Program-made: the position numbers and the translations under genes
The notes under the pieces: generated by a model
What the model was told of the DNA's origin: nothing
The model's database searches: none
Seen by the model: the letters and a program-made list of their open reading frames with translations, nothing else
In this document: piece by piece, positions 55,112 to 56,348 of the stretch
Numbering within the stretch: the first letter of the stretch is position 1
Layout of the letters: each line of letters begins with the position of its first letter
Assembly (NCBI GenBank): GCA_003223645.1
Contig: QHVT01000023.1
Location: forward strand, 32,960 to 96,959
DNA length: 64,000 bases
Source: Acidobacteriota bacterium
GTDB taxonomy: Bacteria; Acidobacteriota; Thermoanaerobaculia; Gp7-AA8
Reading direction: 5' to 3'

Positions 55112-55660
55112 ATGGCGATCGGCAAGATCAGGGAAGGCTTGTACGGCGTGATCGCGGAGTTCAACGATCCGCAGACGCTGCTCGATGCCGCGCAGGCGAC
55201 ACGCGAAGCCGGCTACACGTCCGTCGACGCCTTCTCGCCGTTCCCGATTCACGGACTCGCCGAAGCGATCGGCTTTCACAAATCGCACTTGTCCGAAATC
55301 GTCCTCGGCATGGGCGTGCTCGGCGGACTGGGCGGATACTTCATGTGCTGGTACGCGAACGTGATCGCCTATCCGCTCAACATCGGCGGCAAGCCCTTCA
55401 ACTCGTGGCCGGCCTGGATCCCGATCACGTTCGAATGCACGATCCTCCTCGCGGCATTCGGCGCCGTCCTCGGCATGCTCGCGCTCAACGGCCTGCCGAT
55501 GCCGTATCACCCCGTATTCAACGTGCGGAGGTTTGACAGCGCGTCGAGAGACAAATTCTTCCTCGTCATCCAGGCGCGCGATCCAAAGTTCAAGCTCGAC
55601 GAAGCGCGTCAGTTCTTGAAGGCTCTTTCACCACGGGAGGTGACCGATGTCCCGTGGTAA
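55112..55660 (+). CDS. actD: Alternative complex III DUF3341 subunit
   Basis: [22 protein letters not shown]. Confidence 0.92.
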
Positions 55661-56348
55661 TGAAGGCAGAAGGCAGAAGGCAGAAGGCAGAAGTGAGAAG
55701 TTGCGCTTCCGCGTGCGGTTTGCTTGCTCACTTCTGCTTTCTGCCTTCTGCCTTCTGCCTTCATTCGGTTGTCGCCAAAAGATGGCCAACCAACCCCGCT
55801 ACGATCCTCTCGAAGCCAGCGACTTCTTCACCGACGGCATGTCCGCGCGTCCGCGCATCGCCGGCACCGTCGCGCGCGGTGAGCTCGTCACGAACGAGTT
55901 TTTCTCGACCGGAAAAATGGGCGGACGAGACGGAAACGGATTTCCGGTTCCGGTCGACGCCGCGCTGCTCGATCGTGGCAACGAGCGCTTCAATATTTAC
56001 TGCACGCCGTGCCATGGCCGGCTCGGCGACGGCAAGGGCATGATTCCGTCGCGCGGCTACCGCCATCCGCCGACGTTCCACAGCGACGCGTTGCGCAACC
56101 AGCCGACCGGGCACTTCTTCGACGTCATGACCAATGGATTCGGCGCGATGCCGCAATACGGAACGATCATTCCGCCGCGCGACCGCTGGGCGATCATCGC
56201 CTACATCCGCGCGCTGCAGCTCAGTCAGAACGCGACCGCGGCGGACGTTCCGTCCAACGTGAAACTCGAAAGTGGAGGACAGGCAATCCTGCCTGTCCCG
56301 CCGAATGGACAGGCGGGATCGCCTGTCGTCCACGGAGGCGCGCGGTGA
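55647..56348 (+). CDS. actE: Alternative complex III monoheme lipoprotein cytochrome c
   Basis: SD GGAGG; SFGC lipobox-like then [27 protein letters not shown]. Confidence 0.9.
55659..55765. repeat. GAAGGCA fold-back inside the actE signal-peptide region
   Basis: Same element as 37557-37643. Confidence 0.92.

Follow-up and report, generated by a model that had tools for sequence, protein, structure and literature searches.

A heptamer fold-back repeat as the probable hydrophobic core of an ActE export signal in an Acidobacteriota genome

The window analyzed here, 64,000 nt from a soil-dwelling Acidobacteriota bacterium (GCA_003223645.1, contig QHVT01000023.1, positions 32,960 to 96,959), carries the operon for alternative complex III (ACIII), and within it the gene actE for a monohaem cytochrome c subunit. 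A hairpin repeat built from GAAGGCA heptamers has probably replaced the hydrophobic core of the ActE export signal, which would now be read through the repeat from an ATG at 55647 (positions are those of the window). That the element was exapted as a signal had been proposed in an initial annotation of this DNA, and the proposal is supported by three observations: the native core is gone, the sister genome keeps the pyrimidine-rich arm of the hairpin alone, and the ratio of nonsynonymous to synonymous substitution (dN/dS) in mature ActE is 0.23.

The fold-back at the start of actE

The open reading frame (ORF) at 55647..56348 (+ strand, 233 aa) is ActE, as judged by operon context and domain content. 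It has a single c-type haem domain with CxxCH, seen as a Cytochrome_CBB3 match (E 1.4e-12, residues 108-187) and a CTPCH haem-binding motif read from the sequence (56001..56015, + strand), and it is the one full-length ActE match in the genome of the window, which we call G000 (G-numbers denote genomes and L-numbers ActE loci). Upstream lies actD (55079..55660, + strand; Pfam ActD PF11821, E 2.1e-67), encoding a membrane subunit of ACIII. The two genes overlap, the actE ATG preceding the actD stop codon (TAA, 55658-55660) by 11 nt. A Shine-Dalgarno-like GGGAGG (55635..55640, + strand), lying within the actD codons for REV and 6 nt 5' of the ATG, would serve actE. A periplasmic c-type cytochrome requires a signal upstream of its mature Cys.

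Directly behind the actD stop stands a 107-nt fold-back, whose two arms (55659-55697 and 55727-55765) are each 39 nt long, 97% complementary, 29 nt apart and made of 4.6 copies each of the heptamers GAAGGCA and TTCTGCC. It fills codons 5-40 of the 41 codons before Cys42. On the + strand, the purine arm, AATGAAGGCA(GAAGGCA)n GAAGTGAG (55659..55697), encodes 13 residues that form the basic part of the n-region; the loop (55698..55726) encodes 10 residues and holds two in-frame alternative starts, TTG 55701 and GTG 55713; and the pyrimidine arm, CTCAC(TTCTGCY)n CTTCATT (55727..55765), encodes the 13 residues of the hydrophobic core. Cys42 (TGT, 55770..55772, + strand), which aligns with a Cys in relatives, is the proposed lipid-modified first residue of mature ActE and is followed by CGC CAA AAG ATG (RQKM).

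The putative lipoprotein signal peptide spans 41 codons (55647..55769, + strand), with codons 1-4 (MSRG) and 41 (G) native and codons 5-40 element-derived. This agrees with the initial annotation, which had traced nearly all codons between MSRG and GC-RQKM to the element. It had also taken the pyrimidine arm for the sole hydrophobic stretch before the Cys, and indeed a 17-residue uncharged run is the only one there; this run has a Kyte-Doolittle mean of 1.86, and its length falls within the roughly 7-22 residues expected of a lipoprotein h-region. Its view of the purine arm as encoding a charged n-region stands in part: the arm does hold a basic peptide in frame, but its translation is uncertain given the loop starts TTG 55701 and GTG 55713. 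The net charge of the n-region is +6 from ATG 55647, +3 from TTG 55701 and +1 from GTG 55713.

The element pattern at actE is far beyond chance. The window has 28 occurrences of the double-unit pattern GAAGGCAGAAGGCA with at most one mismatch, where shuffles predict 0.02, and the RNA of 55640-55790 folds at -94.9 kcal/mol against -48.0 ± 4.1 in 200 shuffles (z = -11.6), none of which was as good. A promoter/terminator scan of 55000-56500 found no promoter-like sites, and its single weak terminator-like hit, located in the loop, did not exceed what shuffles give. An Rfam scan of 50000-59500 (E <= 1) gave sub-gathering-score generic hairpin matches to miRNA-precursor models and no known RNA family.

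The actD-actE junction in relatives

ActE was searched in 41 related genomes and matched in 37, including all 24 other genomes of the genus. The actD-actE junction was read in 30 loci, which share with the window the gene order actB, actC, actD, actE, actF. A scan of public genomes added 80 loci, from soil metagenome-assembled genomes (MAGs) labelled Thermoanaerobaculia or Acidobacteriota, for a total of 110 loci, 106 of them evaluable. Alignment of the ActE N-termini of relatives, a check that the initial annotation had proposed, showed the Cys after the element to be conserved, and it revealed insert-free relatives with a short signal. The Cys is aligned in 30 of 30 loci, and a TGY stands at the aligned codon in 102 of 106, the other four having a Cys 3-5 residues upstream; this argues against a true start downstream of the element. 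Codon statistics of the gene caller put the ActE start after the Cys. With Cys42 as the likely first residue of mature ActE, the only place left for its signal is the stretch that the element encodes.

The insert-free members of the genus (L004, L005, L009, L015, L019 and L020) have a textbook short lipoprotein signal from the same ATG, reading M[SF][RP]GK, then 12-14 hydrophobic residues, then [AG][AS]; MSRGKSIILALLTVAALGAC is an example of this ancestral-type short ActE signal. They offer no other start codon, which makes the ATG overlapping the actD stop the ancestral start, and (G)GAGGT stands before the actE start in relatives' junctions too. Because an ordinary short signal begins at that ATG in these relatives, the element-coded stretch appears to have replaced a native core. 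The native hydrophobic core is gone in G000, G018 and G008, where the arm is the only possible core; in L001, L002 and L003 the element abuts GGx-TGY, the Gly-Cys codons.

A tree of ActC-D-E-F (1028 columns, quick IQ-TREE, 30 loci) places G000 and G018 as sisters with an SH-aLRT support of 100, and the two share the same 3' junction. G018 has the pyrimidine arm alone, in a compact 21-aa signal, and its junction folds at only -8 kcal/mol. Its keeping the pyrimidine arm without the hairpin argues that the arm was retained as coding sequence. Between the mature ActE of G000 and G018, dN is 0.152 and dS 0.647 (dN/dS 0.23, 186 codons), so actE has been under purifying selection with its repeat-derived signal. 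G008, in a different clade, has a full GAAGGCA element with a different junction, which is probably an independent insertion.

The 39 genus-type rows include three duplicates (L070 = L009, L072 = L012, L083 = L019), leaving 36 distinct loci, and in 35 of these the frame is kept between the ATG that overlaps actD and the Cys. Signal lengths among the 35 are 18-21 aa in 10 loci, 26-31 aa in 4 and 36-51 aa in 21; the 21 long inserts are free of in-frame stops, and their extra DNA has folding energies of -43 to -98 kcal/mol. Long inserts are in frame and stop-free in 21 of 22 cases. At L021 (G003:C2), actE is no longer in frame with the native ATG because of its hairpin insert, and a second frameshift follows further on; either the gene is decaying or the 4-contig assembly contains indel errors. 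The constancy of frame from the upstream ATG across so many insert lengths argues that ribosomes read through from ATG 55647.

The inserts at the junction are differing elements, with GAAGGCA, GAACGCA, GAATGCA, GTAGGCA, AGAGAAA and GAGTCGAC-like units, plus non-repeat hairpins. The element is absent at the same site in 10 of the 35 distinct genus loci and in the out-of-genus loci L022-L030, and at least 7 presence/absence changes are required on the 30-locus tree. By this comparison, the actD-actE junction is an insertion hot spot. Three loci are from unpublished genomes, L006 (G024) and L011 (G002) among the 35 and also L026 (G030), and no conclusion rests on them. In the distant Acidobacteriota loci L088, L091 and L142 (CRQDMHDQPK type), ActE signals carry repeat-like charged-then-hydrophobic inserts, e.g. 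KDTKGRTKDT...FVSFATFVSL; the insert phenomenon may thus reach past the genus.

The replacement can be pictured as follows. A GAAGGCA-type copy would have landed directly behind the actD stop codon; given the 11 nt from the actE start to that stop, the landing point corresponds to actE codon 5. The insert would have stayed in frame and stop-free, and the native hydrophobic core of the lipoprotein signal would then have been lost. Translation from ATG 55647 would now read the basic purine arm and loop as an n-region (+6), then the 17-residue h-region, then Gly-Cys, with Cys42 becoming the lipidated first residue of mature ActE. The 7-nt palindromic element would in effect be a ready-made charged-then-hydrophobic module.

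Heptamer fold-backs elsewhere in the genome

The G000 genome (6.38 Mb, 63.6% GC) contains 858 heptamer arrays of at least three copies, which pair into 312 fold-backs belonging to at least 15 unit families. Of the 312, 309 begin with the purine-rich arm. Most "solo" arrays, purine or pyrimidine arms near gene starts, are arms whose partner fell under the three-copy threshold.

GAAGGCA arms encode (EGRRQKA)n, with a net charge of +2 per 7-aa unit, and then (FCLLPSA)n, with no charge and a Kyte-Doolittle mean of 1.76. Because 7 and 3 are coprime and the element is palindromic, the same two peptides come from either strand and in any frame. The earlier generalization that a GA-rich/TC-rich fold-back naturally encodes charged-then-hydrophobic peptides therefore holds for GAAGGCA in all frames, but it fails for the GGCGGAT family, which instead encodes IRHPPSA (Kyte-Doolittle -0.77), and for two common unit families that contain stops, GAGGATT and GCTGAGT. 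A special stop-free design of the units was also considered and rejected, since simple arithmetic suggests that, at this GC content, some two in three random heptamers would lack stops on both strands.

The GAAGGCA family has 76 copies, with the consensus ATGAAGGCA(GAAGGCA)n..(TTCTGCC)nTTCAT; they have common ends, ATGAAGGCA... and ...TGCCTTCAT, and an inner stem TGAGAAG/CTTCTCA. Their loops range from 13 to >100 nt and are unrelated to each other, which is odd for copies of one master element and leaves the origin of such copies unexplained. A second GAAGGCA subfamily has additional outer flanks, GCGCGCACGG...CCGTGCGCG. Besides the palindromic AT..AT ends, no clear target-site duplication was found in GAAGGCA copies. 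No RAYT-type gene was found beside the copies either: the lone Y1_Tnp (IS200/RAYT-type) match in G000, at G000:C4:53122-53433 (L185), is weak (32.9 bits) and has no heptamer array within ~1.6 kb.

Other exported proteins of G000 show the same arrangement. As a criterion, we required a lipobox-like Cys at most 16 residues after the pyrimidine arm and no charge in the 12 preceding residues. The initial annotation had suggested counting N-termini with SAFCLLP-like h-regions. Of 291 element-gene pairs, 16 fit our criterion in the gene frame, whereas the two control frames gave 7 and 4. Among 205 distinct element-gene pairs, 13 candidates were listed, ActE included. Ten were fetched, and nine of the ten match exported Pfam families: SBP_bac_1, Phosphodiest, Sulfatase+TPR (two), 5'-nucleotidase, Rhodanese, HlyD, a weak SBP_bac_3, and PQQ dehydrogenase. 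The domain begins 10-39 residues after the Cys, leaving no room for another signal.

Five of the nine were compared with orthologues, which lack the element and have short plain signals with the Cys aligned: MKKAFLALLLLS, MNRRGLLLFVALFVTA, MIRRSLPFLLLLLSA and MRKLILVAVLATLS, each directly before C, and MSSRFLSSLGVAAVLCAC. The G000 versions carry ...FCLLPSA... signals before the C instead, and in several of these five genes the open frame has no ATG ahead of the one with which the element itself ends. In two G000 genes, for a solute-binding protein (SBP, C21:668240) and the 5'-nucleotidase (C32:44095), starting at an ATG within the loop would yield a short signal of conventional form. Other fold-backs stand at the same signals in G013 (SBP), G009 (PQQ dehydrogenase), G006 and G012 (rhodanese), and in the unpublished G002 (SBP and rhodanese), while pyrimidine-arm-only halves are found in the 5'-nucleotidase of G011 and G008 and the rhodanese of G005. 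The notion that such fold-backs offer a route to new signal peptides thus gains nine further exported-family proteins in G000, five of them checked against orthologues.

A broader generalization, which we advance tentatively and would put somewhat short of even, is that the heptamer fold-backs of this genus are portable signal-peptide cassettes, working in any frame and on either strand, that repeatedly overwrite native lipoprotein signals and then decay to pyrimidine-arm-only cores. Each element would supply a terminal ATG, a basic purine-arm peptide and a hydrophobic pyrimidine-arm peptide, and the cases covered would be ActE, the PQQ dehydrogenase, solute-binding proteins, the 5'-nucleotidase, the phosphodiesterase, the rhodanese and the sulfatases.

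The window holds further fold-backs. GAAGGCA copies lie at 37559..37641 and, twice, between actB and actC (53343..53453 and 53542..53652), the second as part of a 199-nt tandem duplication (53282-53657, 1.9 copies, 90% matches) that comprises the last actB codons and the GAAGGCA fold-back. Other units are ATTGAGG (6203-6297), the 8-mer CGGTTGCG (8314-8377), GTGCTGG (16430-16497), AGATGGC (16928-17008 and 50220-50319), GAACGCA (44094-44174) and the 8-mer AGCCTCCC (48843-48921); one fold-back of another unit stands just 5' of actB. A SCO1/SenC ORF (58088-59080, Pfam domain at residues 40-173) continues through a long (GATGGCA)n fold-back (58843-59057), and its last ~80 residues read MADGRRQMAE...PSAICHPPS..., a repeat-coded tail that is C-terminal, not N-terminal. 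Arrays without the fold-back arrangement also occur: a (CAGCACC)11 array (43113-43189, 97% matches) has no inverted partner listed adjacent to it, and two head-to-tail tandem arrays have units of 41 nt (62918-63215, 7.3 copies, 90% matches) and 43 nt (24432-24856).

The ACIII operon as a whole spans 50331-58091 by the ORF list and Pfam. Upstream of actD are actB (50331-53336, Fe-S domains by Pfam) and actC (53671-55107, NrfD by Pfam). Downstream of actE is actF (56345..57547, + strand), whose GTG start overlaps the actE stop; it was assigned by position and conservation in relatives, its product having no Pfam matches. Antisense to actB runs a 1069-aa open frame (50118-53327, - strand) that is not a gene by codon statistics; long antisense open frames are typical of GC-rich DNA. 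Seven soil-metagenome DNA runs from four studies contain at least 0.72 of the sampled sequence words, and no RNA run was among the sequencing runs listed as matching them.

Alternatives, precedents and implications

Several points weigh against a repeat-derived ActE signal read from ATG 55647. Export of ActE via Sec, its processing by Lgt and Lsp, and the start codon used are all deduced from sequence. The purine arm may be untranslated, because TTG 55701 and GTG 55713 in the loop are in-frame alternative starts. Counted from ATG 55647, the n-region reaches an unusual length of 24 aa and includes three acidic residues, and the 39-bp stem, which starts 12 nt past the actE start codon, could hinder initiation; it may need opening by translational coupling with actD. 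For comparison, we took 137 putative native lipoprotein signals of G000, selected with a crude filter from our own crude gene calls. The h-region hydropathy of 1.86 is near the low end of their range (median 2.47, 5th-95th percentile 1.72-3.13), and Pro among the last six h-region residues occurs in just 3.6% of them. The lipobox consensus is [LVI][ASTVI][GAS]C. The S-F-G-C of ActE fits at -1, where 35 of the 137 also have G, but the sequence PSFG before C is otherwise atypical: S at -3 is found in 5 of the 137, F at -2 in 18 and P at -4 in 1, and SFG in none. A Pfam scan of 62-80-aa N-termini (E <= 10) matched no lipoprotein-signal model even among native control signals, so it says nothing for or against the ActE signal. 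Among the relatives, G018 and several others are fragmented MAGs, in which half-element copies may reflect hairpins collapsed by assembly.

The placement of the fold-backs was also counted genome-wide. These counts depend on the same gene caller (5077 calls covering 87% of the genome), and most fold-backs are merely intergenic (188 of 312, with 96 overlapping a gene end and 28 inside a gene call). No in-frame excess was found genome-wide: of 317 pairs, 116 have an element that is open in the frame of the gene, and the two remaining frames give 115 and 108; the idea that most copies are translated was rejected on these numbers. The intergenic fold-backs include 49 flanked by a divergent gene pair and 13 flanked by a convergent one, although the genome has 784 and 779 such pairs respectively, so the elements favour gene 5' regions.

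An atypical lipobox, a very long n-region and low-end hydropathy are what might be expected had the insertion crippled the signal, leaving the ActE of G000 unexported or its gene decaying. This we consider most improbable, given that the actE ORF is intact with its CTPCH and encodes the only full-length ActE of the genome, that the whole operon is intact, and that dN/dS is 0.23 since the split from G018, which has the insert too and conserves PSFGC. A start of translation within the loop, at TTG 55701 or GTG 55713, would make the purine arm an untranslated leader or hairpin and leave the loop and pyrimidine arm to build the signal. Each of these codons is in frame with actE, initiation at TTG would give a textbook n-region (net +3) with the Cys at position 24 and was the choice of a naive lipoprotein filter, and the loop ATGs of the SBP at C21:668240 and the 5'-nucleotidase at C32:44095 likewise yield conventional short signals. 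Such a start is nonetheless unlikely in actE: TTG 55701 has no clear Shine-Dalgarno sequence before it and is buried in the 39-bp stem, whereas a strong GGAGG precedes ATG 55647, the sole possible start in insert-free relatives; the G008 loop has no start with a basic n-region; and the in-frame, stop-free relation of 21 of 22 long inserts to the upstream ATG is not required under a loop start.

The hairpin might instead be kept at the actD-actE junction for a role in RNA, in mRNA stabilisation, processing or control of translational coupling, the peptide being a tolerated by-product. In 21 of the 35 distinct genus loci this junction carries a hairpin, and the sequences of these hairpins are unrelated; the operon has other fold-backs too, shortly before actB, between actB and actC, and at the 3' end of sco1; and the enrichment near gene 5' ends and the lack of a genome-wide in-frame excess point the same way. 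Left unexplained are the missing native core in G000, G018 and G008, and the pyrimidine arm without a hairpin in G018 and in other genes and species. We therefore regard a purely RNA-level explanation as doubtful, if a little less so than the loop start; an RNA role is compatible with replacement of the signal core, not exclusive of it.

Selfish palindromic repeats tolerated in conserved ORFs, with the insert absent from orthologues, have a parallel in Rickettsia palindromic elements (RPE), in-frame insertions in coding genes that Ogata and colleagues reportedly described in 2000 and that occupy surface loops of the mature proteins without an assigned function. RPE reside in the mature protein; here the insert is in a putative cleavable targeting peptide and would supply a needed physicochemical feature. 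PARCELs are repeat DNA with dyad symmetry that is translated and associated with membrane-targeted lipoproteins, as here, but they form 25-residue domains in the mature protein, not signal peptides or heptamer fold-backs. REP/BIME elements (PMC3733652) are also short, abundant, hairpin-forming and mostly intergenic or intercistronic; the elements here show neither a GTAG nor a CGTC tag, have arms of tandem heptamers and unrelated loops, and differ in unit from family to family.

The closest precedent found is that of Delihas 2007 (PMC2759123), in which the enterobacterial repeat RU-2 forms part of the SignalP-predicted signal of a hypothetical exported protein, homologues elsewhere have unrelated signals, and repeats are proposed as building blocks for exported proteins. 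RU-1 and RU-2 (MITE/ERIC-like) resemble our elements as small mobile repeat units inside ORFs that form part of a signal peptide. They differ in being single hypothetical loci of complex sequence with SignalP prediction only, whereas here inverted 7-nt arrays encode a frame- and strand-independent peptide, in conserved host genes of known function, with the native core replaced, recurrence in many genes and species, and pyrimidine-arm-only remnants. For ActE itself, the R. marinus protein has been proposed to be a lipoprotein with a lipobox ending at Cys24 (PMC5928083); it too is a monohaem c subunit after ActD with the lipobox Cys as proposed lipid anchor, but its signal is short, while Cys42 here follows a repeat-derived 41-aa signal. 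A search by literature and sequence words, with subscription journals outside its scope, turned up no paper, other than PMC2759123, that describes heptamer fold-backs in Acidobacteriota or lipoprotein signals derived from repeats. New here are the heptamer purine/pyrimidine design that makes the coding outcome independent of frame and strand, the replacement of the core in conserved genes of known function, the pyrimidine-arm-only derivatives, and the repeated occurrence in different genes and species.

Signal peptides evolve rapidly, and drift within loose constraints is the usual account of how they arise. The case described here offers a concrete mechanism seen in natural genomes, in which a repeat appears to have taken the place of the targeting core in a respiratory subunit that looks essential and in several further exported enzymes. 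Should experiment confirm it, selfish DNA would be shown to create and renew export signals, acidobacterial annotations with strange, repeat-like N-termini would have an explanation, and there would be a warning for signal-peptide predictors and for gene callers, which here placed the ActE start after the Cys. On the broader cassette reading, if true, selfish DNA would drive a continuous turnover of export signals and, potentially, their birth.

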